Source: Chloroflexota bacterium (GTDB taxonomy: Bacteria; Chloroflexota; Dehalococcoidia; Dehalococcoidales; UBA2162). From it: DNA of 64,000 bases. A program made the translations under genes and the position numbers. Below the pieces are notes generated by a model. It did not search any database, had not been told where the DNA came from, and worked only from the letters and a program-made list of their open reading frames with translations. This document shows, piece after piece, positions 7,265 to 61,919 of this stretch (the first letter of the stretch is position 1; each line of letters begins with the position of its first letter). The stretch covers positions 9,773 to 73,772 of the forward strand of contig JACQGQ010000040.1 of the NCBI GenBank assembly GCA_016199495.1. Reading direction: 5' to 3'.

Positions 7265-7304
7265 AATTTTGTCCAGCTGGTACAGCGGTGGCTTTCAAGG
7301 TGAG

Positions 7305-10344: not shown

Positions 10345-10401
10345 TGCCAACTGGCAAAATAAGATACATATATTGACAACTGTCCTTATTTAACTTATAA
10401 T
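10345..10401 (+). promoter_or_regulatory. Consensus sigma70 promoter with upstream palindrome (copy 1 of a shared glycan-operon motif)
   Basis: TGCCAACTGGCA (10345-10356), 16 nt, TTGACA (10373-10378), 17-nt spacer, TATAAT (10396-10401). The -35 is embedded in TTGACAACTGTCC, a near-palindrome (GACAACTGTC). It lies 50 nt upstream of the XRE ATG. Confidence 0.75.
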
Positions 10402-10451: not shown

Positions 10452-10643
10452 ATGGAGAAGCTTAAGGAAAAGGTAAAGGCGCTACGAAAGAAGAGAGGCT
10501 GGTCGCAAGAGGACCTGGCACGGGAAATAGATGTTAGCCTCTCCACGGTTCAGCGCTGGGAGGGGAAGGGGGCTAATCCCACCCGTCTGGCTCGTCGGGA
10601 GCTTAAGAAACTTTTCCGAGCCGCTGGCATTGATGACGAGTAG
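10452..10643 (+). CDS. XRE-family helix-turn-helix transcriptional regulator (63 aa)
   Basis: 'LRKKRGWSQEDLAREIDVSLSTVQRWEGKGANP' is a textbook HTH_3/XRE motif. It is the first gene after the consensus promoter and immediately precedes the GT2 gene. Confidence 0.85.
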   Translation: MEKLKEKVKALRKKRGWSQEDLAREIDVSLSTVQRWEGKGANPTRLARRELKKLFRAAGIDDE

Positions 10644-10650
10644 GAAAATA

Positions 10651-11532
10651 ATGGCTAGACCGCCTCGACCGAAAATAATGGCTGCTATTCCCGCTTTTAA
10701 TGAGGAGAAGTACATCGGTACCATCGTACTTAAAACCAGGCAATATGTGGATGAGGTCGTTGTCGTTGACGATGGTAGTACGGACCAAACGGCCAGCATC
10801 GCCAGACTGGCCGGGGCTAACGTCATTCAGCACCAGCAAAACAGGGGTTATGGGGCTAGCATCCAGACCCTCTTAACCGATGCCAAGGGAAAAGAGCTTG
10901 ATATTCTTGTCCTTCTTGATGGTGACTTCCAGCACAATCCTGACGAAATTCCTCAACTCATCCAGCCCATCTCGGAAGGTTTTGACCTCGTTATTGGCTC
11001 AAGGGAAGCCCAGGGGGTCAATATCCCTGGATACCGCCGTATCGGGCAAAGGGCGATAGCCTATTTCTCCCGTATTCTCTCCGGGAAAAAGCTCTACGAT
11101 TCCGAGTCCGGATTCAGGGTTTTTTCCCGAAAGGCGATAGCCTTGCTCGAGTTGAAAGAAAATGGCATGGCTATCTCAGCCGAGACGATAGCCGAGGCGG
11201 CTGAAAAGGGGCTCAAAATTACCGAAAGGCCAATTTCAATCAGGTACACTGAGGACGGCTCAACCCTGCACCCCGTCGTGCATGGCTTTGGGGTTCTCGG
11301 TCGCATCATCGTCATGATTTCTGAAAGGAGACCCCTCTTTTTCTTCGGGCTGGGTGGTTTCATACTGAGCGTGCTTGGCTTGTTTGTCGGCATCAGGGTG
11401 CTGAGCATTGCTTCCGCTAGCGGGCAGGTAGCTATCGGCACGGCGCTGGTCTCAACCTTGTTGCTGATTATTGGCGTATTGAGTATTTTTACCGGCGTCA
11501 TACTAAACGTGCTCACCAAATGGAGAAGCTGA
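10651..11532 (+). CDS. GT2 polyprenyl-phosphate glycosyltransferase (GtrB/ArnC/DPM1-like) with two C-terminal TM helices
   Basis: ATG 10651 lies 5 nt after AGGA; the track ORF start at 10531 overlaps the XRE gene in another frame. 'IMAAIPAFNEEKYIG...VVVVDDGSTDQT' and 'LDGDFQHNPDEIP' are GT-A DXD-type motifs. The C-terminus 'LFFFGLGGFILSVLGLFVGI...ALVSTLLLIIGVLSIFTGVIL' gives two TM helices. Confidence 0.85.
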   Translation: MARPPRPKIMAAIPAFNEEKYIGTIVLKTRQYVDEVVVVDDGSTDQTASIARLAGANVIQHQQNRGYGASIQTLLTDAKGKELDILVLLDGDFQHNPDEIPQLIQPISEGFDLVIGSREAQGVNIPGYRRIGQRAIAYFSRILSGKKLYDSESGFRVFSRKAIALLELKENGMAISAETIAEAAEKGLKITERPISIRYTEDGSTLHPVVHGFGVLGRIIVMISERRPLFFFGLGGFILSVLGLFVGIRVLSIASASGQVAIGTALVSTLLLIIGVLSIFTGVILNVLTKWRS

Positions 11533-11737
11533 GAGGGTGTCAAAATGTCATTCTGAACGTAGCGAAGAATTTCGGGGAAGGGCAGACCCGCCTGCTAAAG
11601 CTTGGCGGGCAGGCAAACTAACAGGAAACTGGCTTTTGGTCATTCTGTCTCAAATTCTGGCTAACAGAATTAGAGTACCTTAACAGCCTCTATATGCCAT
11701 GTCGGTAACATTGATAATTTGAAGAGGAATCGAGGCA

Positions 11738-12814
11738 TTGAAGATTACGATAATCGTTGGCACTCGCCCCGAAATAATCAAAATGGCACCGGTCATCAGG
11801 GAATTAGAGAAACGGCCGGCTAACTACTTTATCCTCCATACTGGCCAGCACTATTCATACAACCTTGACCGGGTATTCTTTGAGCAGCTAAAACTCCCGC
11901 CGCCTAAATATAATCTGGAGGCAGGGTCGGGCTCACCTGGTGAGCAAACGGCAAAGATACTTGTCGCTATCGAAAAAGTCCTGCAACAGGAAAGCCCCGA
12001 TGTAATTCTGGTGGAGGGTGACACCAACTCTGTCCTCGCCAGTGCTCTAGCTGCGGTTAAGCTCCACATAAAAGTGGGGCATGTCGAGGCCGGCTTGAGA
12101 AGCTACGACAGGCAGATGCCGGAGGAGATTAATCGTATCTTGACCGACCATTGCTCCGACTTCCTGTTTGCCCCCACCAGGCAGGCAAAAGCCAACCTGC
12201 GGGGGGAGGGTATTCCTGAAGAGAAGATATTCATCACCGGCAATACGATTGTTGATGCCGTCCAGCAGAGCCTGGCAATAGCCAGAGGCAGTGCCAGTAC
12301 TATTAACACCCTGGGCCTCAAGACGGGGGAATATTTCTTGGTAACCGTTCACCGCCAGGAGAATGTCGATAACCGGGCAAGATTTGCCTCTATCTTGAAA
12401 GGTCTTGACAGGCTGGCGGCTAGCTTTGAAATGCCGGTAATCTATCCTGTCCACCCCCATTCCAGGAAGATGATGGCTAAGTTCGACCTTCACTGCCAAC
12501 GCCTCAGGCTGGTTGAACCAGTAGATTTCCTTGGCTTTTTGCAACTTGAGAGCAATGCCCGGCTTATCCTGACCGATTCCGGCGGTGTCCAGGAAGAGGC
12601 TTGTATCCTCGGTGTGCCCTGCGTTACCCTGAGAGATAACACTGAGAGACCGGAAACAATCGAGGTTGGCGCCAACGTCTTAGCCGGTGTTTCGCCGGAT
12701 AAGATACTTGAATGCGCCAAGGTGATGCTTGACCGGGAAAAGGGTTGGCCGAATCCCTTCGGCGACGGCAAAGCTGGAGGGAGAATTGTTGACATACTGG
12801 GGGGGAAGAGATGA
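11738..12814 (+). CDS. wecB: UDP-N-acetylglucosamine 2-epimerase (non-hydrolysing)
   Basis: 'MKITIIVGTRPEIIKMAPV', 'VEGDTNSVLA', 'HVEAGLRSYD...MPEEINR', 'SDSGGVQEEA' are the WecB/MnaA signatures. TTG start. Confidence 0.9.
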   Translation: MKITIIVGTRPEIIKMAPVIRELEKRPANYFILHTGQHYSYNLDRVFFEQLKLPPPKYNLEAGSGSPGEQTAKILVAIEKVLQQESPDVILVEGDTNSVLASALAAVKLHIKVGHVEAGLRSYDRQMPEEINRILTDHCSDFLFAPTRQAKANLRGEGIPEEKIFITGNTIVDAVQQSLAIARGSASTINTLGLKTGEYFLVTVHRQENVDNRARFASILKGLDRLAASFEMPVIYPVHPHSRKMMAKFDLHCQRLRLVEPVDFLGFLQLESNARLILTDSGGVQEEACILGVPCVTLRDNTERPETIEVGANVLAGVSPDKILECAKVMLDREKGWPNPFGDGKAGGRIVDILGGKR

Positions 12815-13725
12815 GAATACTGGTCACCGGCGGTCTGGGAGCGGTCGGCAAGCCCTTATCTGGGGAATTGAGGCGGAGGGGGCATGAGGTCTGGATTTCA
12901 GACAGGACGCACTCTTATGAGTCATATTACATAAGGTGCGATATCGGCGAGTTTCACCAGGTGGAGGCTCTTTTCCGTAAAGTGGAATTTGATTATGTCT
13001 ATCATCTCGCCGCCGAATTTGGTCGCCGTAATGGCGAAGATTTCTATGAGACGCTCTGGAAGACGAATGCTATTGGCACGAAGAATATCCTGAGAATGCA
13101 GGAACGGCTTCAATTCAAGATGATATTCACCAGCAGTTCGGAGGTCTACGGGGATTACGGCGGGATTATGAGTGAAGATGTCATGGATAAAGTGGCTATC
13201 CGGCAAATGAACGATTACGCTATGAGTAAGCGAGTGAACGAGATGCAAATTTTGAATTCCGCTGATAGATTCGGTACGGAGACAGTGCGCCTCCGGTTGT
13301 TCAACACTTACGGCCCCGGAGAGTATTATTCTGAGTATAGGAGCGCTATCTGTGTCTTTATCTATCGAGCTCTGCACGACTTACCCTACACCGTTTTCAC
13401 CAGGCACAGACGGACCTCCTCCTATATCGATGATACGGTCAGGACACTGGCTAATATCGTCGGAAATTTCAAGCCGGGCGAGGTCTATAACATCGCCGGT
13501 AACGAATTGCACGATATGAAGCAAGCCTCCGATATTATTCTCAGTTATCTGGGTAAGGATGATAGTTTGGTCGAGTATCGTGATGTCGAAGAAGCGACCA
13601 CCCTGGAGAAGAGGGTGGATGCTTCCAGGGCAGTTCGCGACCTGGGGCATCAAAGCACCGTGGCCCTGGAGGAGGGCATCCCGAGGACTATCGACTGGCA
13701 GAAAGGGGTTTACGGCCGTGGCTAA
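12811..13725 (+). CDS. NAD-dependent epimerase/dehydratase (extended SDR)
   Basis: 'MRILVTGGLGAVG' Rossmann motif, 'FTSSSEVYG', 'YAMSK' (YxxxK). The ATGA overlaps the wecB stop. Confidence 0.8.
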   Translation: MRILVTGGLGAVGKPLSGELRRRGHEVWISDRTHSYESYYIRCDIGEFHQVEALFRKVEFDYVYHLAAEFGRRNGEDFYETLWKTNAIGTKNILRMQERLQFKMIFTSSSEVYGDYGGIMSEDVMDKVAIRQMNDYAMSKRVNEMQILNSADRFGTETVRLRLFNTYGPGEYYSEYRSAICVFIYRALHDLPYTVFTRHRRTSSYIDDTVRTLANIVGNFKPGEVYNIAGNELHDMKQASDIILSYLGKDDSLVEYRDVEEATTLEKRVDASRAVRDLGHQSTVALEEGIPRTIDWQKGVYGRG

Positions 13726-14938
13726 GAAAATAGTCATAATTGGTACCGGTTATGTCGGCTTGCCTCTCGCTATCGTGCTGGCGCGCGCCGGCTATCAGGT
13801 TGTCGGTGTTGATATTGAGGAAAACGTAGTCAACGCCATTAACCAGGGTGTCTTACGTCTGGCTGAAGAAGAGGTCAAGCAGATATTCCGGGAACCCCGG
13901 GTAAGAGAGAACCTTCATGCCCAGAAGACCCCTTGCCCGGCAGATGTCTTTATCATCTCGGTGCCGACACCCCTGGACGAAAAGAAAAGGATTGCTGACC
14001 TTTCCCAGGTTATCGGCGGTGTGGAGTCTATTTTACCATTTTTGCGTTCGGGTAACCTGGTCATCCTGGAAAGCACCGTGCCTCCGCTCACCTGCCGGCA
14101 GATTGTCGCTCCCCTTATTGAAAAGACCGGGTTAAAAGTGGGGGAAAGCATTTTCCTCTGTCATTGTCCGGAAAGAATTTTACCCGGCGAAGTATTTGAG
14201 GAACTGGTGAACAATGACCGGGTTATTGGCGGGCTTAATGCTCAAGCCGCCCAGATGGCCAGGGAAATCTATGCCTCCTTTGTTAAGGGGAATCTTTATC
14301 TCACTGACGATGTTACCGCGGAACTGGTCAAGCTGATGGAAAATACCTATCGAGATGTCAATATCGCCCTGGCTAACGAATTTGCCGCCGTGGCTGAAGG
14401 GCTTAGAGTGGATATCTTGCAGGCGATTGAGCTGGCTAATAAGCATCCTCGGGTCAATATCCTTAAACCCGGCATCGGTACTGGCGGGCATTGTATTCCT
14501 GTCGACCCCTGGTTTATCAAGGAGGTTAATCCGATTAACTCTCGCCTCATCCATACTGCCCGGCTGATTAATGATGAGGTACCCTATAAAATTGCTGCCA
14601 GGATTAGGCAGACCCTCAAGGAGATAAAGAATCCTCGTATAGTAGCCGTCGGTGTTACCTACAAACCTGATACCTATGACATCAGGAATAGCCCGGCGCT
14701 GAAGATAGTTAGCCTGCTCAGGGAAGACGGCTACCAGGTGGCAGCCTATGACCCGTTGGCTCAGGGTTATCAATATACTTCTCTCGGGGAAGTAGCCAAA
14801 GGAGCCGATTGTTTAGTGATACTGGTGGAGCATCAGGTTGTTAAGCAAGAGCTTGCCGGTAAGGAGATTGATATCAAGAAGGTTATGCGCCACCCCTTGA
14901 TAATGAGATTCTACCCTCAACCAGAAGTGACCACCTAG
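13718..14938 (+). CDS. Nucleotide-sugar 6-dehydrogenase, UDP-N-acetyl-D-mannosamine dehydrogenase (WecC)-like
   Basis: GTG 13718 overlaps the upstream stop; the track start at 13559 lies inside the previous gene. 'KKIVIIGTGYVGLPLA', 'GGHCIPVDPWFI'. Proximity to wecB (one SDR gene between them) suggests UDP-ManNAcA formation. Confidence 0.8.
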   Translation: MAKKIVIIGTGYVGLPLAIVLARAGYQVVGVDIEENVVNAINQGVLRLAEEEVKQIFREPRVRENLHAQKTPCPADVFIISVPTPLDEKKRIADLSQVIGGVESILPFLRSGNLVILESTVPPLTCRQIVAPLIEKTGLKVGESIFLCHCPERILPGEVFEELVNNDRVIGGLNAQAAQMAREIYASFVKGNLYLTDDVTAELVKLMENTYRDVNIALANEFAAVAEGLRVDILQAIELANKHPRVNILKPGIGTGGHCIPVDPWFIKEVNPINSRLIHTARLINDEVPYKIAARIRQTLKEIKNPRIVAVGVTYKPDTYDIRNSPALKIVSLLREDGYQVAAYDPLAQGYQYTSLGEVAKGADCLVILVEHQVVKQELAGKEIDIKKVMRHPLIMRFYPQPEVTT

Positions 14939-14943
14939 GAACA

Positions 14944-16350
14944 ATGTTAAAAATAACTTTAATAAACCCCCCGCAAGCCAGCCAATATTCACAACCCCCG
15001 ATGGGGCTAGCCTTGCTCGCCGCTGTCCTGGAAAGGGGCGGCTACAATGTAGCTGTCGTCGATGCCAACGCCTTAAAGCTCAAGCCGGAGAATGTCGTCC
15101 CCCAGGTGATTGATACCGATGTCGTCGGACTGACCGCGATGACTCCCACGATAAATGCGGCGATAGCTATCGCTCACCATCTGAAAAAAGCTGACCCCGA
15201 TTTGACCTTAATCCTGGGCGGTGCCCACGCTACTCTGCTACCTGAGGAAACGTTAATTAGTGCCCCTGAAATAGACGTGGTTATCCGGGGAGAGGGGGAA
15301 GAGACCGTTATTGAATTACTGCGGGCTTTAGAAGATAAGCAGCCTTTAGGTAAAATTCCAGGCATTAGCTACCGAAAAGATGGTAAGGTGGTCAGTAATG
15401 CGGCTAGAGCCACGGAGGTTGATTTGGACTCTCTGCCTTTTCTTGGCTACCACTTACTGCCCTGGCAAAGATATAAACCCCATCCGCCCCACGGCCGCGC
15501 CCTCCCCTTTGCCGCTATTATCACCAGTCGGGGTTGTCCTTACCAGTGTGGCTACTGCTCCAAACCCATCTTTGGCAACAAGTTTAGAGGGCAAAGCCCG
15601 CAGAGGGTGGTTGCTGAGATTGCTTACTACCAGGATAAGTTTGCCATTAAAGAGTTTGCTTTCTACGATGATGTCTTTACCCTGAACCGGCAGAGAGCCT
15701 ATGGGATAGCCGAAGAGCTAATAAAAAGGGAGCTAAAAATAGTCTGGACCTGCGAGACGCGGGTCAACCTGGTGGATAAAGATTTATTGACCCGTATGAA
15801 GCAAGCCGGTTGCTATGCGGTTGCCTATGGTATCGAATCTGCTTCCCCGGAGATACTGGCCAGTCTCAACAAAGGCATAACTATCGACAAGGTGGAGGAG
15901 GCAATTCGCCTATCCCGGGAGGTAGGCTTACAAACCATTGGTTACTTTATGATTGGCTGTCCCGGCGAGAACCAGGAAACCATCGTTGCCACCATTGAAT
16001 TTGCCAAGAAGCTAAAGGTTGATTTCGCCCAGTTTGCTGTCACCACACCATTCCCGGGTACCGGGTTATACGACTTATATCTAAAGGATAAGGGAGACAA
16101 CATCCCCTGGGAAAACTTTGTCTACGGAGGGGCGGGCAACCAGATAAACCCCGTGTTTGAAAGCGCTCAACTTAGCCGGGCTGACCTTGAGTATTGGAAG
16201 GGAAGAGCTTATCGAGAATTCTACCTGCGTCCGGCTTACATCTGGCAGCGCCTTAAACAGGTTGACTCTATCGGGGACTTAAGACTTAATCTCAAGGGGT
16301 TTTTGATGCTTCTGGGGGATATCAAACCTCGGCCAAGAGAAGGAGCATGA
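14944..16350 (+). CDS. B12-binding-domain radical SAM protein (COG1032-type, class B rSAM) no. 1
   Basis: N-terminal Rossmann-like cobalamin-domain pattern ('LINPP...PMGLALLAAVLERGGYNVAVVD...VVGLTAMT...ILGGAHAT...IRGEGE'), then 'SRGCPYQCGYCSKP' (CxxxCxxC). Confidence 0.85.
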   Translation: MLKITLINPPQASQYSQPPMGLALLAAVLERGGYNVAVVDANALKLKPENVVPQVIDTDVVGLTAMTPTINAAIAIAHHLKKADPDLTLILGGAHATLLPEETLISAPEIDVVIRGEGEETVIELLRALEDKQPLGKIPGISYRKDGKVVSNAARATEVDLDSLPFLGYHLLPWQRYKPHPPHGRALPFAAIITSRGCPYQCGYCSKPIFGNKFRGQSPQRVVAEIAYYQDKFAIKEFAFYDDVFTLNRQRAYGIAEELIKRELKIVWTCETRVNLVDKDLLTRMKQAGCYAVAYGIESASPEILASLNKGITIDKVEEAIRLSREVGLQTIGYFMIGCPGENQETIVATIEFAKKLKVDFAQFAVTTPFPGTGLYDLYLKDKGDNIPWENFVYGGAGNQINPVFESAQLSRADLEYWKGRAYREFYLRPAYIWQRLKQVDSIGDLRLNLKGFLMLLGDIKPRPREGA

Positions 16351-17567
16351 ACATCCTTTTTGTCCACGAAGTTGATTGGCTGAGAAAGGTAGTGTTTGAA
16401 ATACACACCCTTTCCGAACTTTTGTCCCTGTCAGGACACCAGGTTTATGCCATTGACTATGAATCTATGTGGGTTAAGAACCAGCCCTTTGACTTTGGCA
16501 GCCTCAAAACGCAGACAGTTGATAGGGTAGCCAGGGCTTACCCCGATGCCTCGGTGAGCCTGATACGTCCCGGCTTTATCAAGCTTCCCGGCTTGAGCCG
16601 TCTCTCGGCGACCTACACCCACTGCCGGGAAATCCAGAAAACTATTAAGGGAAAAGATATTGATGTTATTATCCTTTACTCCGTGCCGACCAATGGCTGG
16701 CAAACCATCCGTCTCAGTCGGAAGCTGGGCGTGCCGCTAGTGTTCAGAGCCATCGATATACCCAATCAACTCGTCCCCTATCCGCTCTTGCGCCCGATGG
16801 TTCGCTGCCTGGAAAGAAAAGTATACTCCAACGTAGACCTGATTCTAACCATTAGCCCGCGGCTGTCCCAATACGTGATTAATATGGGCGCCCCGCCGGC
16901 TAAGGTGGAACTGCTGCTCCTGGGGGTAGATACCGGCTTCTTCCGTCCGCAGCCTGATGATACTGAAATCCGCCGGAAATGGGGGTTGGGGGAAAAGGAC
17001 CTGATTATCGTTTTCATCGGCACCCTGTTTGGTTTCAGCGGGCTTGATGCCTTTATCCGCCGTTTCTCTGAAATCGTAAGAGAGATTCCCGAAGCCAGGC
17101 TGCTCATCGTCGGTGATGGACCTCAGCGCCCCGGGCTGGAAAGAATAATCACGGAATTGGGTCTGCAAAGGCAGGTCATCATCACCGGCTTCCAACCCTA
17201 TGAGACGATGCCCGGCTACATCAATCTGGCGGCAGTATGTATAAATATCTTCCGGCTGACAGCTACTACCCGGGATATCTTCCCGACCAAGATAGTCCAG
17301 TATCTGGCTTGCGGCAAGGCGGTGGTTGCCACGCCGCTGCCCGGCATGACGGCCATAATTCACGGCCGAGAGCAGGGGATAGTTTATGCCACTACCCCTG
17401 GCGAGATAGCTTCCGAGATAATCGCACTGCTTCAATCACCCCAGGACAGGCAACAATTAGGGCAAGCCGCTTTAAGCTACGTGAAGCAAGCGCACAGTTA
17501 TGATAGAATAGCTCAACAGCTTGAAGCCGCCCTTGGTGAAGTCGCTGGTAGAGGGGAATCAGCGTGA
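16347..17567 (+). CDS. GT4-family glycosyltransferase no. 1
   Basis: 406 aa with GT-B retaining-type C-terminal motifs ('IIVFIGTLFGFSGLD...LLIVGDGP...FPTKIVQYLACGKAVVAT'). The ATGA overlaps rSAM-1. Confidence 0.85.
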   Translation: MNILFVHEVDWLRKVVFEIHTLSELLSLSGHQVYAIDYESMWVKNQPFDFGSLKTQTVDRVARAYPDASVSLIRPGFIKLPGLSRLSATYTHCREIQKTIKGKDIDVIILYSVPTNGWQTIRLSRKLGVPLVFRAIDIPNQLVPYPLLRPMVRCLERKVYSNVDLILTISPRLSQYVINMGAPPAKVELLLLGVDTGFFRPQPDDTEIRRKWGLGEKDLIIVFIGTLFGFSGLDAFIRRFSEIVREIPEARLLIVGDGPQRPGLERIITELGLQRQVIITGFQPYETMPGYINLAAVCINIFRLTATTRDIFPTKIVQYLACGKAVVATPLPGMTAIIHGREQGIVYATTPGEIASEIIALLQSPQDRQQLGQAALSYVKQAHSYDRIAQQLEAALGEVAGRGESA

Positions 17568-19012
17568 CGATACTGCTACTTAACCCGAAGCTTAACTCCT
17601 GGAGTCCGAATGTCTATGTGCCACTGGGACTGGCCTACATCGCCGCCGCCTTAGAACAGGCCAGCTACAGTGTCGAAATCATCGACCTTAATGTAGAAAA
17701 AATAAGCGATAACGAACTGCAGCGAAAAACAGCCGCGGCTGATATGGTAGGTATTACCGGCATGGTTACGGAACATGAGGGCATCTTGAGATTAGTCGAT
17801 ACTATCAAGAAAGCCAATGCTGAGACCGGAGTAATCTTGGGTGGTCCTCTGGCGACGACGCTGCCGCGGGAAATGCTCCAGTCCTCCCGGGCCGACTTCG
17901 TAGTTATCGGGGAGGGGGAGAAAACTATCGTCAACCTTGTTTCGGCGATAAAGCACGGTGATAACTTCAGCGATATTAAAGGTATCGCCTATAAAGATGG
18001 TGACCGAATCATCGTCGCCGAGCCAGCAGAACCTATCGCCAACTTGGACACTGTTCCCTTCCCGGCCAGACACCTTTTAGATATGAATCGTTACCTGCAA
18101 AATCATTTCGAGCGCTTTGGGTTCAAAGTTAAGGATTTCGGTAAAATCAAGAGTACCAACCTGGTATCAAGCAGAGGCTGCCCCTATAGCTGCACCTTTT
18201 GTTTCAAAGGCATGTGGGGCAGAACGTGGCGGGCACGAAGCCCGGAAAATATCATTGACGAGATGGAACTGCTCTACCGGGAGTATGGAGTAAATGGTTT
18301 TTTCTTCAATGATGATACCTTTGTCCTCGATAGAAAGAGAATTTTTGAATTTTGCCAGTTATTGAAGGCAAGGGGATTGAAGGTCGCCTGGTATTGCAAC
18401 GGTCGCATCAACCTGATGACAAAAGAACTGCTTGAAGCTATGTATGATGCCGGCTGCCGCGGCATCGCCTATGGCATAGAGTCAGGCACCCAGCAGATAC
18501 TGGACTCGATGAAAAAGAACGTAGCCCTTGACCGGGTAAGAACGGTGGTCAAATATACCAGGGAGGCCGGTATTTATACCACCGGCTACTTTATGATTGG
18601 GATGCTGGGTGAAAACAGGACCACCATCAGAAAAACTATGAGTTTCGCCCGGGAGCTTGAGCTAGATTATTACGGCTTTTCCCTGACAACCCCCTTAATC
18701 GGGACGGAGCTATATGACCATGCCCTTGAAGCCGGGCTGATAGAAAGAGATGGTACGTCTCCACAAGAGTGGAGCCTCCATGTCAATGCCAATTTGACCG
18801 ATGATTGCTCTGATGCGGAACTGGCTGCCTTTGAGAGCGAAGCCTTTAAGGAATTCTTCCTTAAGAAGAGATTCGGTAAATACTATTTCTTTAACCCGAA
18901 CTTCTTAAAAGAGGAGCTGGCAGTGCTTCTTTCGCTGCGCCACAAGGCGCAAGCCAAAGAATTGGCTAATAAAGTTAAAGGTATTGTTAGCTCTTACTGG
19001 CATAAAGGTTAG
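17564..19012 (+). CDS. B12-binding-domain radical SAM protein no. 2 (paralogue of no. 1)
   Basis: 'LLNPK...PLGLAYIAAALEQASYSVEIID...MVGITGMV...ILGGPLAT...IGEGE' then 'SRGCPYSCTFCFKG'. It is collinear with rSAM-1 over its full length. The GTGA overlaps the upstream GT4. Confidence 0.85.
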   Translation: MTILLLNPKLNSWSPNVYVPLGLAYIAAALEQASYSVEIIDLNVEKISDNELQRKTAAADMVGITGMVTEHEGILRLVDTIKKANAETGVILGGPLATTLPREMLQSSRADFVVIGEGEKTIVNLVSAIKHGDNFSDIKGIAYKDGDRIIVAEPAEPIANLDTVPFPARHLLDMNRYLQNHFERFGFKVKDFGKIKSTNLVSSRGCPYSCTFCFKGMWGRTWRARSPENIIDEMELLYREYGVNGFFFNDDTFVLDRKRIFEFCQLLKARGLKVAWYCNGRINLMTKELLEAMYDAGCRGIAYGIESGTQQILDSMKKNVALDRVRTVVKYTREAGIYTTGYFMIGMLGENRTTIRKTMSFARELELDYYGFSLTTPLIGTELYDHALEAGLIERDGTSPQEWSLHVNANLTDDCSDAELAAFESEAFKEFFLKKRFGKYYFFNPNFLKEELAVLLSLRHKAQAKELANKVKGIVSSYWHKG

Positions 19013-19014
19013 AC

Positions 19015-20181
19015 ATGAAAATTTTACAGGTATTTGCCATATTCTCCCCACAGGTTAATGGTACGGTAAAGCTCTTATATCAGCTCTCGGAAGCCCTGAT
19101 GAAAAGAGAACATGAGGTGGTGATATATGCCAGCGATTACAAATCGGACCAGGAATATGCCAATTCTCTGCCGCGAGTTAAGGTTTACCCTTTTCGGAGC
19201 TGGTTGAATTTGTTGGGATTATACTTGATGCCGGGTATGATTGCCGCCACAAGGAAGGGGCTGAAAGACTTTGATGTCATCCACCTGCACTGCTTGCGCA
19301 GCTTCCAGAATATCGTGCTCCACCACTATGCCGTTAAATATGGTATGCCTTATGTCCTGGATACCCACGGCTCCCTCCCCAGAAGGCACGGTGAAAAGAG
19401 CCTCAAGTGGTTGCTGCGGTGGTTGTTTGATATTACCTATGGCTATAGGATATTAAGGGATGCCAGTAAAGTTATTGCTGAGACTGAGCTAGGAGTCAAC
19501 GAATATAAAGAATTCGGCGTAAATCAAGATAAGATAGTTTTAATTCCGCCGCCATTTGCCGTTGACAACTTTGCGCGGCTGCCAGCGCCGGGCTTATTCC
19601 GGCAAGGATATAATATTAAAGAAAAGGGCATAGTCCTGTTCCTGGGCAGAATAAACTGGATAAAAGGGCTGGACTTTTTGGTGGAATCTTTTAATGAACT
19701 GGCTAAGTCAAGGAGCGATGTTATTCTGGTAATCGTGGGTAATGACGATGGCTATAAGCCCACCCTGGATAAGCTCATCAGGGAGCTGGATTTGTCAGAC
19801 AAAATCTTATTTACCGGATTTCTGGATGGAGCTGCCAAGCTAGCGGCACTGGTTGATGCCGATGTCGTCGTGCAGACCTCTAGATATGAGCAGGGCGCCT
19901 GGGCACCCTTTGAGGCAGTGCTGTGTAATACCCCGATTATCGTCAGTAATAATTCCGGTGCTGGCGAGGATGTGAAGAAGATAGACGCCGGCTATTTGGT
20001 GGAATATGGAAATAAAGGGCAATTAAGAGATATGATACAGTATGTTCTTGAGCACCCGGCGGAAGCCCGGGAGAAAACACAAAAGGCAAAGGAGTATATC
20101 AAGTCAAATTTATCTTTAAAGAAGGGAGTGGAGAAATATGAGGAGCTCTATCGAGAGGTGAGCCGGAGGTATAAAAAATGA
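19015..20181 (+). CDS. GT4-family glycosyltransferase no. 2
   Basis: 'IVLFLGRINWIKGLD...LVIVGNDDG...YEQGAWAPFEAVLCNTPIIVSNNSGAGE' are GT4 motifs. Confidence 0.85.
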   Translation: MKILQVFAIFSPQVNGTVKLLYQLSEALMKREHEVVIYASDYKSDQEYANSLPRVKVYPFRSWLNLLGLYLMPGMIAATRKGLKDFDVIHLHCLRSFQNIVLHHYAVKYGMPYVLDTHGSLPRRHGEKSLKWLLRWLFDITYGYRILRDASKVIAETELGVNEYKEFGVNQDKIVLIPPPFAVDNFARLPAPGLFRQGYNIKEKGIVLFLGRINWIKGLDFLVESFNELAKSRSDVILVIVGNDDGYKPTLDKLIRELDLSDKILFTGFLDGAAKLAALVDADVVVQTSRYEQGAWAPFEAVLCNTPIIVSNNSGAGEDVKKIDAGYLVEYGNKGQLRDMIQYVLEHPAEAREKTQKAKEYIKSNLSLKKGVEKYEELYREVSRRYKK

Positions 20182-21143
20182 AAATGCTGATAACCGGAGG
20201 CGCCGGATTCATTGGCAGCCATTTATGTGACAAATACACCAAAGAAAATCACACTGTATTGTGCCTGGATAATTTTATGAGTGGCAACCTGACCAATGTC
20301 AAGCATCTACTGGATAACCGAAATTTCAAGTTGATAAAAGGTGATGTTAGAGACTTTGACCTGCTGGAAAAGATTACGCGTGATGTCGATGTCGTCTTTC
20401 ATCTGGCAGCCCAGATTCATGTGGACAGGTCTTATATTGAGCCTAAACTTACCTATGAAGTGAATGTTATGGGGACACAGAATATCCTGGAAGTAGCCAG
20501 GCTATATGATGCCAAGAAGGTAATTTATGCTTCGACCAGTGAGGTATATGGCTCGGCTCAATATTCCCCGATAGATGAACAGCACCCCTTGAATGCTCCC
20601 CATCCTTATGGCGCCAGTAAAATTGCGGCTGACCGGATGTGCTATGCTTATATTCATACCTACGGTATGAATATAAGCATCGTCAGGCTCTTCAATATTT
20701 TTGGCCCGCGGCAGAGGGATATCGGCTATGGGGGAGTGATATCGATATTTACTCGGAGAATCCTGAGCAATCTGTCCCCTATTATCTATGGAGACGGGCG
20801 ACAAACCAGGGATTACACCTATGTTGAGGATGCAGTCAGAGCTTATGATTTAGTCTTAAACCATAATGAGCCGCTAACCGAGCCAATCAACTTTGGCAGC
20901 GGCCGGGAGGAGTCGATACTCGACTTAGCCAATATGCTCATTGCCTTAAGCGGAAAAAAGGGTAATATCAAACCAGTTCATATCGAGCCAAGAATAGGCG
21001 AGGTTAAGCGGCTTATTGCTGACGCCACCAAGGCTAAAAATCTCCTGGGATGGGAACCCAAGTGTAAATTAGAGGAGGGGTTGGAGAAGTTTGTGCAATG
21101 GTACAGAAATTACGGACTAGAGGGGAGGATTGAAATCGAATGA
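20178..21143 (+). CDS. NAD-dependent epimerase/dehydratase (RmlB/UXS-like extended SDR)
   Basis: 'MLITGGAGFIGSHL', 'ASTSEVYG', 'YGASKIAADR', 'GDGRQTRDYTYVEDAV'. Confidence 0.8.
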   Translation: MKMLITGGAGFIGSHLCDKYTKENHTVLCLDNFMSGNLTNVKHLLDNRNFKLIKGDVRDFDLLEKITRDVDVVFHLAAQIHVDRSYIEPKLTYEVNVMGTQNILEVARLYDAKKVIYASTSEVYGSAQYSPIDEQHPLNAPHPYGASKIAADRMCYAYIHTYGMNISIVRLFNIFGPRQRDIGYGGVISIFTRRILSNLSPIIYGDGRQTRDYTYVEDAVRAYDLVLNHNEPLTEPINFGSGREESILDLANMLIALSGKKGNIKPVHIEPRIGEVKRLIADATKAKNLLGWEPKCKLEEGLEKFVQWYRNYGLEGRIEIE

Positions 21144-21202
21144 AAAGCGTGAAAGGAATATGAGCTAGGCTGGGCAGTCAGCCAAAGATGAGGGGGAGAG
21201 AT

Positions 21203-21958
21203 ATGAGCGCCAATGGCAAGCTTGAGGGCGGGTTTAGAACCAAAGCCGAGCAAGAAGTCGGCAAGAGAATTGAAGAGATTTTCCTGAAGTGCCCGGATAG
21301 TGTCGAGACAAAATTAGAAAACTTCACCAAATATGTGCGACGGCAAAAAGTTACTCGCCTGTTAGCCCAATATGAAATTTTTAAGCAGATATTAGGTGTT
21401 AAAGGGTCGATTATAGAGTGTGGTGTTCATCACGGGTTTGGGCTGATAGCCTGGGCACAGCTTAGCTCCGTCTTAGAGCCAGTTAATTTGACCAGGCGTA
21501 TCTACGGGTTCGATACCTTCGGCGGATTCCCGGTGGTAAATGAGAAAGACCGGAGTAAGTTCACGCATATCGAGGCTGGAGCTTTCTACGCCGACTCCTA
21601 CGATGAATTAACCGAGTTAATCAAAATTTATGATAGTAACCGATTTCTAGGGCATATTCCCAAAGTAGAGTTGATAAAAGGAGACGCCGTCAGGACTATT
21701 CCTGAGTTTATCGAGAATAATAAACATCTGGTGGTGAGTCTATTGTTTCTTGACTTCGATTTATATGAGCCGACAAAAGCTGCCCTAGAAAGCTTCTTCC
21801 CCAGAATGCCCAAGGGAGCCATAGTTGCCTTTGATGAACTGGATAATCCCCTCTGGCCAGGGGAAACCCTGGCTCTTTTGGAAACAATAGGGATAAATAG
21901 ACTGACAATAAAGCGGGTTGAATTTGACCCTTACATTGGTTATGCGGTTATAGAATGA
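21203..21958 (+). CDS. TylF/MycF-family sugar O-methyltransferase
   Basis: 'IIECGVHHGFG...FDTFGGFP...LLFLDFDLYEPTKAALESFFPRMPKGAIVAFDE' is the macrocin-O-methyltransferase-like pattern. The ATG at 21203 is preferred over 21188 (GAGGGGGAGAG upstream). Confidence 0.7.
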   Translation: MSANGKLEGGFRTKAEQEVGKRIEEIFLKCPDSVETKLENFTKYVRRQKVTRLLAQYEIFKQILGVKGSIIECGVHHGFGLIAWAQLSSVLEPVNLTRRIYGFDTFGGFPVVNEKDRSKFTHIEAGAFYADSYDELTELIKIYDSNRFLGHIPKVELIKGDAVRTIPEFIENNKHLVVSLLFLDFDLYEPTKAALESFFPRMPKGAIVAFDELDNPLWPGETLALLETIGINRLTIKRVEFDPYIGYAVIE

Positions 21959-22779
21959 GTGAAATTAGCGTAGAAAAATACCAAGCCCTAGCTAGGCAAA
22001 CACGGGTACGTGTTCTAAGAATGATTCACCGTGCCCAAAGTTCCCATGTTGGCACGTCTCTCTCGGCAGCCGATTTGCTGACAGTGCTATACAACCGAGT
22101 ATTGCGCCTGGACCCCGCTCGGCCAGATTGGCCTGACCGCGACCGCTTCATCCTGAGCAAGGGACATGGCTGCGCCGTCGTCTATGCGGTACTGGCTGAG
22201 AAGGGGTTTTTCCCTAGAGACTGGCTGGAGACATTCTATCTTGACGGCTCGCATCTGCCGGGACACATTACTCGTAGTGTCCCCGGTGTCGAGGCATCTA
22301 CTGGTTCCCTGGGACACGGGCTTTCCATTGGCTGCGGGATGGCACTGGTCGGTAAGCGAGAGGAGCAGCCCTACCGTGTATTCGTCTTACTCAGTGATGG
22401 CGAGTGTGATGAAGGGTCAACATGGGAAGCAGCCCTGTTTGCCCCCCATCACCACCTGGATAATATCATCGCTATTGTCGACTATAATAAGATTCAGAGC
22501 TTTGGTACGGTGAAAGAAGTCCTCGACCTTGAACCATTGGCCAGCAAATGGCAAGCCTTTGGCTGGGCGACACGTGAGATAGACGGGCACGACTTTGAAC
22601 AGATTGAGAAGGCATTACTGAGTGTCCCTTTTGAGCCGGGAAGACCGAGCTGTATTATTGCCCACACCGTCAAAGGAAAGGGAGTCAGTTTTATGGAGGG
22701 TCAGCTTGCCTGGCATTACAAGCCACCCAATGATGAGCAACTGGCACAGGCGCTAGCTGAACTAGGGGTATTTGGATGA
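21955..22779 (+). CDS. Transketolase, N-terminal (ThDP-binding) subunit
   Basis: 'SSHVGTSLSAADLLTVLY', 'DRFILSKGHGCAVVYAVLAEKG', 'GSLGHGLSIGCGMAL', 'LLSDGECDEGSTWEAA'. Confidence 0.9.
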   Translation: MSEISVEKYQALARQTRVRVLRMIHRAQSSHVGTSLSAADLLTVLYNRVLRLDPARPDWPDRDRFILSKGHGCAVVYAVLAEKGFFPRDWLETFYLDGSHLPGHITRSVPGVEASTGSLGHGLSIGCGMALVGKREEQPYRVFVLLSDGECDEGSTWEAALFAPHHHLDNIIAIVDYNKIQSFGTVKEVLDLEPLASKWQAFGWATREIDGHDFEQIEKALLSVPFEPGRPSCIIAHTVKGKGVSFMEGQLAWHYKPPNDEQLAQALAELGVFG

Positions 22780-23702
22780 GAGCTGGTTTTATCCGAGCAC
22801 TGATGGACCTGGCAAAAACTGATGAGCGTATCTTCTTGCTGGTGGGGGATGTCGGTTATTCTTTGGTTGAACCTTTTGCTCAAGGGTTTCCCCGCCGTTT
22901 CATTAACGTTGGCATAGCTGAGCAGAATATGATGGGTATCGCCACCGGGCTGGCTATGTCTGGTAAGATTGTCTTTGCCTACTCCCTGGCTAATTTCCCG
23001 ACCTTCCGCTGTGTCGAGCAAATACGGAATGACGTCTGCTACCATAATGCTAACGTGAAGATTGTCGCCTCAGGCGGTGGGTTAGTCTACGGTGCTTTAG
23101 GCGTGACTCACCATGTTACCGAGGACTTGGCTATTATGCGTGCCTTACCCAACATGACGGTAATCGCACCAGGTGACCCCATAGAAGCAGCCTTAGCCAC
23201 ACGAGAAGCCGCTGAATTTCCAGGGCCGTGCTACCTGCGATTGGCTAGAACCGGAGACCCCGTAGTTCATGAAGCGGTTCCAGATTTCCAAATTGGCAAA
23301 GCGATTACAGTGCGCAATGGGGATGATATCACTTTGGTTGCCAGCGGAGGGATACTATATAATACTGTTCAGGCAGCCAAGCAGTTGGAGCAGAAGGGAA
23401 TTAAGCCACGAGTGCTAAGCATGCACACGGTTAAGCCCCTGGATGCTGAAGCGTTGCTCGCCGCAGCGACAGAAACTAAAGCAATCATTACTATTGAGGA
23501 ACATAGCATAATTGGTGGCTTGGGAGGTGCCGTAGCCGAGGTACTTGCCGAATCGGGTATCTCGGGTATTGCCTTCAGGCGAGTAGGGATTAAAGACTGT
23601 TTTTGCTTTGAAGTTGGCAGCCAGGCATACTTATGTAAATATTATTCTCTGTCAGCAGAGGACATTGTCAATGAGGCTATTCATCTGTTGAAAGGAGTGT
23701 AA
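22776..23702 (+). CDS. Transketolase, C-terminal (pyrimidine-binding) subunit
   Basis: 'FINVGIAEQNMMGIATGLAMSGKIVFAYSLANF', 'HHVTEDLAIMRALPNMTVIAPGD'. The ATGA overlaps the N-terminal subunit gene. Confidence 0.9.
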   Translation: MRAGFIRALMDLAKTDERIFLLVGDVGYSLVEPFAQGFPRRFINVGIAEQNMMGIATGLAMSGKIVFAYSLANFPTFRCVEQIRNDVCYHNANVKIVASGGGLVYGALGVTHHVTEDLAIMRALPNMTVIAPGDPIEAALATREAAEFPGPCYLRLARTGDPVVHEAVPDFQIGKAITVRNGDDITLVASGGILYNTVQAAKQLEQKGIKPRVLSMHTVKPLDAEALLAAATETKAIITIEEHSIIGGLGGAVAEVLAESGISGIAFRRVGIKDCFCFEVGSQAYLCKYYSLSAEDIVNEAIHLLKGV

Positions 23703-23710
23703 AGATTGAT

Positions 23711-24817
23711 ATGAACTATAAAGTCCCTTTTGTCGATTTCCCGCGGCACTACCATGGTCTGGAGGGCGAGATTGATGCTGCCATTAAAGAGATACTATGC
23801 GGTGGCGATTTTATAATGCGTCAGCAATTACGAGATTTTGAGGAGCATATTGCCTCCTTTCTCGGGGTGGATTACGCGGTGGGTGTCCATAGCTGTACCG
23901 ATGCCATGCACCTCTCTTTGCTGGCTGCCGGAGTCGGACCGGGTGACGAGGTTATCACCGTCGCCCACACCTTTGTCGCTACCGTGGCCGCTATCGTTCA
24001 CTGCGGGGCGACGCCAATTCTGGTGGATGTGAGCCAGGATTTTAATATGGACATGGCACAGGTGGAAAAAGCCATCTCCCCACAGACCAAAGCCATCATA
24101 CCGGTCCACCTCAATGGTCGCCTTTGTGATATGGAAAGGTTGATGAAGATTACTCGTAAACACAATCTCCTGGTAATTGAAGATGCTGCCCAGGCTCTGG
24201 GGGCGGCCTTCGATGGTAAGAAGGCTGGCTCCTTCGGTCTGACCGGGTGCTTTAGCTTCTATCCGGCCAAAATTTTAGGCGGCATTGGTGATGGTGGCAT
24301 CGTAGTTACTGATGATAGTGAGCTAGCCGAAAAGATACGTCTCCTTAGAGACCATGGCAGGGAGACAAAGGAGGACATCGCCTTTTTTGGATTTAATAGC
24401 CGACTGGATAATCTGCAGGCGGCTATTCTTGATGTGAAGCTGAAGCACCTGCCGCAGTGGATTGAGAGGCGACGAGAGCTAGCCTCGCTATATGAGCGGG
24501 GCTTGTCTGCAATACCGCAGATAACCACACCACCCCCCCCACAGCCAGGGCGCTATTTTGACGTCTATACCAACTATGTCGTGCGGGCTGAAGAGCGGGA
24601 TAAGCTTGTCTCCCACCTCGGCCAGTGCGGCATTGAAATTTTGATTTCCTGGCCCAAGCCGATGCACCATCAGCCAGCGCTGGGTCTGGGGCATTTTCAT
24701 CTCCCGGAAACCGAGAGAATTTCAAGAGAGGTACTGTCCTTACCTCTCTACCCGGAATTAAGCGATGACAAGGTGGAATATGTCATAGCGTCAATCCGTA
24801 ATTTCTACAGAGATTAA
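23711..24817 (+). CDS. DegT/DnrJ/EryC1/StrS-family PLP-dependent sugar aminotransferase no. 1
   Basis: 'GDEVITVAHTFVATVAAI', 'IIPVHLNG', 'FSFYPAKILGGIGDGGIVVTDD' (PLP lysine context). Confidence 0.9.
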   Translation: MNYKVPFVDFPRHYHGLEGEIDAAIKEILCGGDFIMRQQLRDFEEHIASFLGVDYAVGVHSCTDAMHLSLLAAGVGPGDEVITVAHTFVATVAAIVHCGATPILVDVSQDFNMDMAQVEKAISPQTKAIIPVHLNGRLCDMERLMKITRKHNLLVIEDAAQALGAAFDGKKAGSFGLTGCFSFYPAKILGGIGDGGIVVTDDSELAEKIRLLRDHGRETKEDIAFFGFNSRLDNLQAAILDVKLKHLPQWIERRRELASLYERGLSAIPQITTPPPPQPGRYFDVYTNYVVRAEERDKLVSHLGQCGIEILISWPKPMHHQPALGLGHFHLPETERISREVLSLPLYPELSDDKVEYVIASIRNFYRD

Positions 24818-24839
24818 AAGTTTTACTTTTATTAAGGTA

Positions 24840-26944: not shown

Positions 26945-27005
26945 CCGGAAGCCTGAGTAAAGGAGCAATTTCCTGTTAGGTTAGCCCTATAAAAATGAGA
27001 AAGAT

Positions 27006-48776: not shown

Positions 48777-48782
48777 GAAGTC

Positions 48783-55965: not shown

Positions 55966-55974
55966 ATTCCAGCA

Positions 55975-56703: not shown

Positions 56704-56731
56704 CGTAACTAACCTTTTATTCTTGCCAATT

Positions 56732-57766: not shown

Positions 57767-57767
57767 C

Positions 57768-58916: not shown

Positions 58917-58928
58917 AGTATAAAACCC

Positions 58929-60640: not shown

Positions 60641-60670
60641 TCAATTCAATGTCCGCCTACTGTCCAATTC

Positions 60671-61918: not shown

Positions 61919-61919
61919 T

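Follow-up and report, generated by a model that had tools for sequence, protein, structure and literature searches.

The Four-Gene Locus

A 64,000-nt stretch of DNA from a Chloroflexota bacterium (Dehalococcoidales; UBA2162), covering positions 9,773-73,772 of the forward strand of contig JACQGQ010000040.1 (assembly GCA_016199495.1), is described here and is called the window throughout. Its main subject is a run of four genes on the + strand in which class B radical S-adenosylmethionine (SAM) proteins alternate with glycosyltransferases of family GT4. The first gene, rSAM-A (14944-16350; 468 aa, ATG start), represents an uncharacterised orthologue family of class B radical SAM proteins and is followed by GT4-A (16347-17567; 406 aa, ATG start), a WcaI/stp3-like GT4 in which D-x7-Q replaces the EX7E motif. 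The third gene, rSAM-B (17564-19012; 482 aa, GTG start), represents a second, separate class B family and is followed by GT4-B (19015-20181; 388 aa, ATG start), a canonical EX7E GT4. An earlier interpretation made from the letters alone (the sequence-only reading) had placed four open reading frames (ORFs) at these coordinates, joined by an ATGA overlap at 16347-16350, a GTGA overlap at 17564-17567 and a 2-nt gap. All were recovered exactly, the gap as TAG-ac-ATG at 19010-19017, and the two cluster motifs it had reported, SRGCPYQCGYC and SRGCPYSCTFC, were found in the predicted proteins. The translational coupling it had described also stands for the four genes, but not as a property special to them. 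Another ATGA overlap, at 20178-20181, joins GT4-B to the next gene (SDR46), so the coupling belongs to the whole operon of 10.5-29.2 kb. The four genes are an internal part of this one long, tightly packed + strand operon, which runs from about 10531 to 29240.

Domains, Fold and Family Membership of the Radical SAM Proteins

Searches with hidden Markov models confirmed the cobalamin (B12)-binding and radical SAM domains in both proteins. The Pfam families PF02310 and PF04055 were matched by rSAM-A at E=1.1e-23 and E=2.3e-25, and by rSAM-B at E=6.1e-24 and E=4.6e-25. The PF02310 matches scored 83.8 (rSAM-A) and 84.6 (rSAM-B) bits against a cutoff of 32.1 and spanned model positions 10-120 of 121. 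The CxxxCxxC motif (C198/C202/C205 in rSAM-A) was invariant in 36 sequences, and GG and GEGE motifs were invariant throughout the rSAM-A and rSAM-B families. The N-terminal domains of both proteins align with those of the true cobalamin binders TokK, CysS, TsrM, OxsB and MgmA.

The AlphaFold2 model of rSAM-A (pLDDT 82.3) has the two-domain architecture of class B enzymes. Foldseek matched it to TsrM, AprD4, MgmA, OxsB, CysS and TokK at E=1e-21 to 1e-26 with TM-scores (TM) of 0.63-0.76. Since methylases (TsrM, MgmA, CysS, TokK) and non-methylases (AprD4, OxsB) are matched equally, the structure is uninformative on the reaction. By sequence, the nearest solved structures are AprD4 (6FD2) and 9CCB, the methyl-coenzyme M reductase glutamine C-methyltransferase MgmA/QCMT, followed by TsrM, TokK, CysS and OxsB. 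The match to AprD4 (E=4e-29 for rSAM-A and 6e-33 for rSAM-B; TM 0.74-0.76) lies mainly in the radical SAM core and not in the B12 domain.

Neither protein could be assigned to a curated family. None of the 35 NCBIfam models matched by rSAM-A was matched at its cutoff. Identity with HpnJ (TIGR03471), the best-scoring profile, was rejected at 260 (rSAM-A) and 202 (rSAM-B) bits against a cutoff of 577.6, as were identity with BchE (TIGR02026; 236 and 199 bits against 481) and with the AprD4 family (NF033070; 115 and 138 bits against 500). The curated methylase models HpnR, PhpK, MgmA, KedN5 and Trp methyltransferase also scored below cutoff in every case. Hopanoid (hpn) genes were found neither in the window nor in any orthologue locus, where the context consists of glycan genes only. 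With no NCBIfam cutoff reached, and with HpnJ and BchE scores less than half of what is required, the proteins fall outside the clades of known non-glycan function that would have spoken against the sequence-only reading. In automatic JGI annotation, many homologues of rSAM-A and rSAM-B are labelled either 'YgiQ' or 'anaerobic magnesium-protoporphyrin IX monomethyl ester cyclase' (BchE). The BchE label is probably wrong, given that scores to the BchE model stay under half of its cutoff.

The superfamily is very large, with 16,597 cluster representatives at E<=1e-30. Among the best 150 of these, no Rosetta-stone fusion of a radical SAM protein to a glycosyltransferase was found, and the only fusions seen were to class I SAM methyltransferases or were tandem fusions of two radical SAM proteins. 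A class I SAM methyltransferase (Methyltransf_11/25) is either fused to relatives of rSAM-A at 35-47% identity or encoded directly after them. Three of these relatives, at 35-39% identity (P0302, P0370 and P0388), are fusions, and in one locus (L160, 6001-8078) the methyltransferase gene directly follows the radical SAM gene. Other relatives are radical SAM proteins joined in tandem, with lengths from about 1000 aa to over 2000 aa. The methyltransferase fusions and neighbours show a link of the clade to methyl chemistry and are silent on which enzyme does what.

Conservation of the Pairing

Adjacency was counted over non-redundant loci in which the contig continues past the radical SAM gene (informative loci; individual loci are given by L numbers). 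A GT4-A orthologue (53-78% identity) lies directly downstream of the rSAM-A orthologue (54-81%) in 13 of 13 such loci. Orthologues of rSAM-B (55-85% identity) occur in Chloroflexota, Desulfobacteraceae and an archaeon of the anaerobic methanotroph group ANME-1. GT4-B directly follows them in 23 of 32 informative loci, and in 5 further loci a gene for AglB/STT3 is the sole gene before GT4-B. The adjacency proposed in the sequence-only reading is thus conserved, even across domains of life. Its description of the pairing as strictly one to one had to be abandoned, since rSAM-B stands without GT4-B in 4 of the 32 loci (L058, L061, L064 and L065), AglB is interposed in five, and in L058 a GT4-A that is 65% identical precedes rSAM-B without rSAM-A.

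The complete tetrad rSAM-A - GT4-A - rSAM-B - GT4-B recurs in L030, L031, L037, L039, L042, L043 and L051. Its recurrence on at least seven independent metagenome contigs, at 64-85% amino-acid identity, puts the arrangement far beyond chance. All orthologue loci of sufficient length for a verdict are glycan loci, and relatives at 42-54% identity again adjoin GT2, GT4 and GT-C genes.

The sequence-only reading had explained the alternating order by duplication of a two-gene module. The two radical SAM proteins are indeed paralogues that align collinearly over 447 residues with 34% identity (E=2e-91), but the rest of the explanation did not hold. GT4-A and GT4-B both match PF00534, PF13439 and PF13579 in Pfam, are only 24% identical and belong by their motifs to different GT4 subfamilies. 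GT4-A and 16 orthologues share an invariant D-x7-Q ('RDIFPxKxxQY') in place of EX7E, which we take to be consistent with a WcaI-like subgroup, whereas GT4-B and 23 orthologues retain E-x7-E. When the best 150 representatives of 50%-identity clusters are ranked by similarity to rSAM-A, rSAM-B is 137th, with more than 130 clusters nearer. The modules also occur independently, module A (rSAM-A with GT4-A) without module B in many Dehalococcoidales, and module B (rSAM-B with GT4-B) without module A in ANME-1 and Desulfobacteraceae. Judged from these comparisons, the tetrad consists of two separate modules and not of a duplicated two-gene unit.

The Operon and Its Probable Glycan Pathway

The first gene of the operon encodes a GT2 of the polyprenyl-phosphate sugar-synthase type (AglJ/PpgS/Dol-P-hexose transferase-like; 10531-11532, +), proposed as the priming enzyme. 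It scores 142 bits to AglJ (cutoff 325), 129 to PpgS and 107 to Dol-P hexose transferase, all below cutoff. About 130 nt 5' of this gene lies a promoter-like TTGACA-17-TATAAT sequence (10373-10401, +), a 12/12 match to the sigma-70-type consensus and a consensus match only. In L005 and L007 a GT2 orthologue stands directly 5' of rSAM-A, and in L003 and L010 one lies upstream of the module.

Three nucleotide-sugar genes lie between the GT2 and rSAM-A. WecB, a UDP-GlcNAc 2-epimerase (11738-12814, +), scores 424.6 bits to TIGR00236 against a cutoff of 210. It is followed by SDR1 (12811-13725, +; PF01370 E=7.6e-39), an epimerase/dehydratase of the short-chain dehydrogenase/reductase (SDR) type whose position between WecB and rSAM-A is conserved. 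The third is a WecC-like UDP-ManNAc dehydrogenase (13559-14938, +), which scores 383 bits to a nucleoside diphosphate (NDP)-sugar dehydrogenase model (cutoff 190) and 372 and 343 bits to the UDP-ManNAc dehydrogenase models, both below cutoff. Its ORF opens at 13559, and the gene call on an identical contig (L001) places the likely true start at about 13718 (406 aa). The rSAM-A/GT4-A pair usually follows such a WecB-SDR1-(WecC) run. WecB is conserved 5' of rSAM-A in L003, L008, L009, L010, L013, L030, L042, L043 and L159, and the WecC-like dehydrogenase is present in L030, L042, L043 and L159 and absent from L003, L009, L010 and L013.

Downstream of GT4-B, SDR46 (20178-21143, +) encodes an SDR of the 4,6-dehydratase type, with orthologues at 74-94% identity 3' of GT4-B in many loci. 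A nucleotide-sugar tailoring block (21188-25667) follows on the same strand, with a TylF-like methyltransferase (21188-21958), a split transketolase-like thiamine diphosphate enzyme (21955-22779 and 22776-23702), a DegT aminotransferase (23711-24817) and a class I methyltransferase (24840-25667). Module B co-occurs with this SDR46/transketolase/DegT/methyltransferase block in L030, L035, L037, L048, L049, L066 and L069. The next gene (25664-26944, +) encodes a GT4-like protein, with matches to the N-terminal GT4 domain only and orthologues in L030 and L035. The operon ends with a 744-aa membrane protein of family DUF2206 (27006-29240, +; PF09971).

In related loci, genes for an oligosaccharyltransferase lie close to the modules. 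The gene found between rSAM-B and GT4-B in five loci encodes a protein of about 800 aa with a WWDYGYW motif and matches to STT3 (PF02516, E=1e-25) and to the AglB core (E=2e-21), and is therefore assigned as an AglB-type oligosaccharyltransferase. AglB/STT3 genes lie within 8 kb in nine distinct loci (L004, L005, L010, L048, L049, L050, L052, L066 and L069), for example at 10730-13141 (-) in L004, 2114-4585 (+) in L005 and 6709-9117 (+) in L049. Those of L004, L005, L010 and L048 are rSAM-A loci, and in L005 the order AglB - small ORF - GT2 - rSAM-A - GT4-A is found on one strand. The presence of AglB genes in Dehalococcoidales-type glycan loci implies archaeal-type N-glycosylation in those bacteria. 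No report joining Dehalococcoidia and oligosaccharyltransferase was found in the literature searched, the coverage of which is incomplete.

At the end of the operon, the DUF2206 protein stands where AglB is found in related loci. Its conserved residues include R36, R212, H215 and D220. Its AlphaFold2 model (pLDDT 78.9, pTM 0.84) matched only GT-C enzymes among the top 14 Protein Data Bank matches in Foldseek (human and yeast oligosaccharyltransferase STT3, the C-mannosyltransferase DPY19, and AftA; probability at least 0.99, TM 0.36-0.46), and the next match drops to noise. The protein is thus predicted by its model to have a GT-C fold. It holds the same terminal operon position in L031, L033 (ANME-1) and L035 (Desulfobacteraceae), and is proposed as the terminal transferase that uses the lipid-linked glycan. 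It may represent an uncharacterised oligosaccharyl- or glycosyltransferase common to Dehalococcoidia, ANME archaea and Desulfobacteraceae. No mention of DUF2206 was found in the literature searched, with the same incomplete coverage. Together, the GT2, the DUF2206 protein with its predicted GT-C fold and the exporters of the region (ABC and Wzx-type) describe a glycan built on polyprenyl phosphate. A GT-C enzyme would transfer this glycan outside the cell, with surface proteins as its most likely acceptors.

The Third Radical SAM Protein and Other Features of the Window

The operon forms part of one large glycan-biosynthesis region that occupies 10.5-63 kb of the window. Named homologues belong to Chloroflexota or Dehalococcoidales, and the nearest genome loci are from Dehalococcoidales metagenome-assembled genomes. 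On the opposite strand lie heptose genes (GmhA-, GmhB- and HddA-like), 6-deoxy-sugar enzymes, a WbuX amidotransferase, FkbM methyltransferases and a nonulosonic-acid set (NeuB, cytidylyltransferase). Genes at 46956-49904 (+) and 55219-62894 (-) include an AsnB-like amidotransferase and a WbuX N-acetyl sugar amidotransferase (342 bits, above cutoff), which suggest an acetamidino sugar, as well as NeuB, cytidylyltransferase, GFO/IDH/MocA, DegT and GNAT genes, which suggest a nonulosonic acid. From the amidotransferase and nonulosonic-acid gene sets, it follows that the locus encodes several rare sugars.

The sequence-only reading had reported a third, more divergent member as the opening gene of the opposite operon. 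The third class B radical SAM protein, rSAM-C (43068-44501, -; PF02310 E=4e-12, PF04055 E=1.8e-17), is real and divergent, with 24% identity to rSAM-A. That it opens the operon is uncertain, as the gene for an ABC exporter (44770-46554, -) precedes it on its strand with a 268-nt gap. This exporter is MsbA/HepA/PglK-like (HepA 416, MsbA 383 and PglK 265 bits, all below cutoff) and is a candidate flippase for the lipid-linked glycan. The gene after rSAM-C (42002-43075, -; 357 aa) overlaps it by 8 nt; its product matched no Pfam or NCBIfam family and is not conserved beside rSAM-C orthologues. Strict pairing fails here too, because rSAM-C is followed by this unknown protein and heptose nucleotide-sugar genes, with no glycosyltransferase. 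Orthologues of rSAM-C (49-51% identity; L149, L152, viral contigs) adjoin HddA-like kinase, RmlC-like and SDR genes, which ties rSAM-C to heptose nucleotide-sugar metabolism rather than to a glycosyltransferase.

Relatives also occur on viral contigs, where class B radical SAM proteins with 25-38% identity are encoded in 218 stretches. In a set of 80 loci (L079-L158; viral by IMG/VR assignment), a cassette of TK-N and TK-C (transketolase parts), SDR, DegT, 4,6-dehydratase-like SDR, rSAM, SDR and dehydratase genes recurs (for example L106, L114, L116, L132 and L142). From their gene content, such cassettes may represent nucleotide-sugar pathways carried by phages, with a radical SAM reaction among their steps.

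Two further observations concern the edges of the window. A gene for an IstB-like IS21 helper ATPase (63351-63920, -) lies at the edge of the glycan region and hints at a mobile locus boundary. At the other end, two molybdopterin-oxidoreductase ORFs (6050-7264 and 4412-6037, -) share one frame and are split by a TGA (6050-6052) in 'CARL-TGA-HSPTVAG', which we take to resemble the selenocysteine site of FdhF-type formate dehydrogenases. Read in this way, 4412-7264 (-) is probably a single selenoprotein gene rather than two.

Proposed Mechanism and Alternatives

The favoured reading is that the tetrad provides two 'radical tailoring plus extension' modules in a polyprenyl-phosphate glycan line that hands its product to a GT-C transferase, and that a Dehalococcoidales bacterium has in this line a pathway of archaeal type for surface or protein glycosylation. 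We give this reading, its guess at methylation included, a probability of roughly 0.45. Direct support exists for the domain composition, the fold, the conserved adjacency, the glycan and AglB context and, at the level of a structure prediction, the GT-C fold of DUF2206. For the substrate, the order of steps, the use of cobalamin and the type of reaction, we infer the following scheme. The AglJ/PpgS-like GT2 (10531) would prime the lipid, GT4-A would add a residue of the ManNAc(A) type derived from WecB and WecC, and GT4-B would add a second residue. Each class B radical SAM protein would act on the lipid-linked intermediate that its partner GT4 handles and alter an unactivated sugar carbon in it, using a 5'-deoxyadenosyl radical derived from a [4Fe-4S] cluster and SAM and probably cobalamin. 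The reaction would most probably be Csp3-methylation, as in GenK, GenD1 and MoeK5. The finished glycan would be flipped and then transferred, by DUF2206 here and by AglB/STT3 in relatives.

A lipid-linked substrate is suggested by the position of the GT2. A polyprenyl-phosphate-type GT2 directly precedes the radical SAM gene in L005 and L007 (Dehalococcoidales), in L011 and L012 (two phyla of the candidate phyla radiation, CPR; 38-39% identity) and in L161 (42%), and this adjacency across phyla points to substrates on the lipid. The last of these loci (L161, Logan SRR22315506, 11.2 kb) encodes a PMT_2 GT-C, a PpgS-like GT2, DUF2304, three B12-radical SAM proteins, a second GT2 and two class I methyltransferases. 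Its PpgS-like GT2 has PpgS as the best match (160 bits, below cutoff) and is followed by DUF2304, and the locus is possibly a minimal system for the radical modification of a polyprenyl-phosphate-linked sugar. The occurrence of GT4-A without rSAM-A in L058 suggests that tailoring is an optional step. Among the possible reactions methylation is ranked first, since methylases predominate in each characterised group of the class and sugar C-methylation has precedent in GenK, GenD1 and MoeK5. C-methyltransferases occur in every class B group from which a member has been characterised (PMC12931638).

What alternatives could account for the same arrangement? The most serious of them, unlikely though it is, moves the radical step from the lipid to the donor. 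Each radical SAM protein would modify a nucleotide-activated sugar (rSAM-A the product of WecB, SDR1 and WecC; rSAM-B that of the SDR46/transketolase/DegT block), and the adjacent GT4 would be the dedicated transferase for the unusual donor. The placement of rSAM-A, which always closes the WecB-SDR1-(WecC) run and precedes GT4-A, agrees with this, as do the co-occurrence of module B with the SDR46 block, the setting of rSAM-C orthologues among heptose nucleotide-sugar genes, and about 20 of the 80 viral-contig loci, in which a class B radical SAM gene directly follows a 4,6-dehydratase-like SDR gene with no neighbouring glycosyltransferase. The viral-contig proteins, however, are not orthologues, and the adjacency of a polyprenyl-phosphate GT2 to the radical SAM gene across phyla speaks against action on the donor. 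So does L058, which keeps its GT4-A without rSAM-A although the donor specificity of glycosyltransferases is usually strict. To our knowledge, no characterised class B radical SAM enzyme acts on an NDP-sugar. The sugar-acting members GenK, GenD1, MoeK5 and HpnJ are described as working on assembled glycosides or glycolipids (PMC9204698). Modification at the level of the lipid is tentatively favoured over modification of the donor.

Rather unlikely as well is a radical step at the same place in the pathway with non-methylating chemistry, such as ring contraction (HpnJ/OxsB), 1,2-diol dehydration of the AprD4 type followed by SDR reduction, or radical epimerisation. It draws on the best NCBIfam profiles, HpnJ and BchE, which describe non-methylases, and on the closest solved structure, the sugar diol-dehydratase AprD4. 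AprD3 accompanies AprD4, and SDR genes flank both modules here; the operon also already holds separate class I methyltransferases. HpnJ itself acts on a glucosaminyl lipid (PMC9204698). Against these points, all profile scores are less than half the family cutoffs, the AprD4 match avoids most of the B12 domain, and no PIG-L/HpnK-type deacetylase was found in the window. Moreover, a sequence similarity network drawn at a stringent threshold puts HpnJ in one cluster with the methylases Fom3 and MoeK5 (PMC9204698, a 2022 review), so likeness to HpnJ is not diagnostic of chemistry. It is improbable that the arrangement reflects operon packing only, with the radical SAM proteins acting off the glycan, for example on the polyprenyl carrier, a protein or peptide, or a cofactor. 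The enormous and versatile superfamily, the relative at 44% identity that has no glycan genes nearby, and the 4 of 32 rSAM-B orthologues without GT4-B would allow it. The uniform glycan context of all orthologue loci long enough to judge, the survival of the adjacency through transfer among Chloroflexota, Desulfobacteraceae and ANME-1 archaea, and the GT2, GT4 and GT-C neighbours of more distant relatives oppose it. By far the least probable alternative is a recently duplicated two-gene unit with strict one-to-one pairing. The collinear radical SAM paralogues and the repeated gene order are what it would predict, but the low identity and different subfamilies of the GT4s, the many clusters closer to rSAM-A than rSAM-B is, the separate occurrence of each module and the exceptions to pairing all contradict it.

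Several points weigh against the favoured reading itself. The viral-contig cassettes, the setting of rSAM-C and the position of rSAM-A after WecB-SDR-(WecC) fit action on an NDP-sugar equally well. The 44%-identity relative in L078 has no glycan genes nearby, and no AglB was found in the window, where the WW[DE][YWF]G motif is absent from every frame. The predicted GT-C assignment of DUF2206 rests on a modest TM of about 0.4. The best profiles, HpnJ and BchE, are those of non-methylases, and sequence cannot separate methylases from non-methylases in the class B superfamily. According to a 2026 review, the non-methylating members have no evident structural traits by which to tell them from the alkylating ones (PMC12931638). 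Finally, cobalamin binding by rSAM-A and rSAM-B is a prediction, and AprD4, their closest solved relative by sequence, binds none. AprD4 and ArsL demonstrate that a B12-like domain can be without the cofactor (PMC12931638).

Precedent and Significance

The sequence-only reading knew of no role for class B radical SAM enzymes in envelope glycan assembly. In support of this, a 2026 review on radical SAM enzymes that depend on B12 (PMC12931638) has no occurrence of the words glycan, polysaccharide or glycosyltransferase, and a 2024 review of archaeal N-glycosylation (PMC11407970) has none of radical, cobalamin or B12. The statement was nevertheless too strong, given that HpnJ acts on a glycosylated envelope lipid and that MoeK5 methylates a sugar on a phosphoglycolipid (PMC9204698). 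Nothing relevant was found in the literature on such enzymes in a capsule, O-antigen, S-layer or N-glycan setting; the coverage is incomplete, and absence is not proof. The radical SAM genes of Campylobacter HS:19 were considered as a precedent and rejected, as they are of unrelated types. rSAM-A and rSAM-B thus enlarge a known superfamily, and their context was not found described in the literature searched.

Radical chemistry probably decorates these cell-surface sugars. A wider claim, which we put forward more tentatively, is that uncultured anaerobes (Dehalococcoidales, CPR, ANME-1, Desulfobacteraceae) glycosylate surface proteins by AglB/GT-C-dependent pathways in which class B radical SAM proteins are a conserved, built-in part. 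These proteins would modify unactivated carbons of polyprenyl-phosphate-linked sugars to give, for example, C-methyl, deoxy or carbocyclic sugars. Known class B enzymes tailor antibiotics, cofactors, pigments and lipids, and a conserved role in primary cell-surface glycosylation would be new. If the claim is true, it would be the first radical chemistry in the assembly of an N-glycan or envelope glycan and would point to a family of sugar structures that no glycoprotein has so far been seen to carry. Dehalococcoidales have no peptidoglycan, and the loci indicate that they run an archaeal-type glycosylation pathway. DUF2206 gains a predicted fold and a likely role. In a superfamily that is huge and mostly uncharacterised, the conserved pairing beside AglB in bacteria and archaea is a real, testable lead, and two compact, tractable gene sets (AglB - GT2 - rSAM-A - GT4-A, and rSAM-B - GT4-B) are available for its study.

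Comparison With Known Systems

The closest profile match is to HpnJ, which works with HpnI and HpnK in the synthesis of bacteriohopanetetrol cyclitol ether. Like rSAM-A and rSAM-B, HpnJ is a class B two-domain enzyme, and it follows a glycosyltransferase in its pathway and acts on a sugar that is linked to a membrane lipid. Unlike HpnJ, the two proteins described here score far below the HpnJ cutoff, have no hopanoid genes in any locus and no HpnK-type deacetylase in the window, and are partnered by a GT4 (and an AglJ/PpgS-like GT2) in a polyprenyl-phosphate and AglB/GT-C context. MoeK5 (moenomycin) and GenK and GenD1 (gentamicin) methylate unactivated sugar carbons of assembled glycosides, the substrate of MoeK5 being a phosphoglycolipid (PMC9204698). 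These enzymes belong to actinomycete secondary metabolism and not to envelope or protein glycosylation, and they were compared with rSAM-A and rSAM-B by description only. AprD4, the 1,2-diol dehydratase of apramycin that acts with AprD3, shares a Rossmann-like N-terminal domain with the two proteins and acts on a sugar ring. AprD4 binds no cobalamin (PMC12931638), whereas the N-terminal domains of rSAM-A and rSAM-B align with true cobalamin binders instead.

Two lipid-linked glycosylation systems offer a parallel for the pathway as a whole. In the mycobacterial system PpgS - Rv3632 - Rv3779, polyprenyl-phospho-HexNAc is made by a short GT2, which is accompanied by a small membrane protein and a GT-C transferase. 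The PpgS-like GT2, DUF2304 and nearby PMT_2 GT-C of L161 resemble it, all at scores below cutoff, and we know of no radical SAM partner in the mycobacterial system. The archaeal Agl pathways share an AglJ-like polyprenyl-phosphate GT2 (here a candidate, scoring below the AglJ cutoff), soluble glycosyltransferases that extend a lipid-linked glycan, and sugars that are unusual or of the ManNAcA type. The hosts described here differ in that they are mostly bacteria (Dehalococcoidales), and the window carries DUF2206 where its relatives carry AglB. The likeness extends to the transferase and to the hosts, as AglB/STT3 is encoded in related loci and module B is itself carried by an ANME-1 archaeon.

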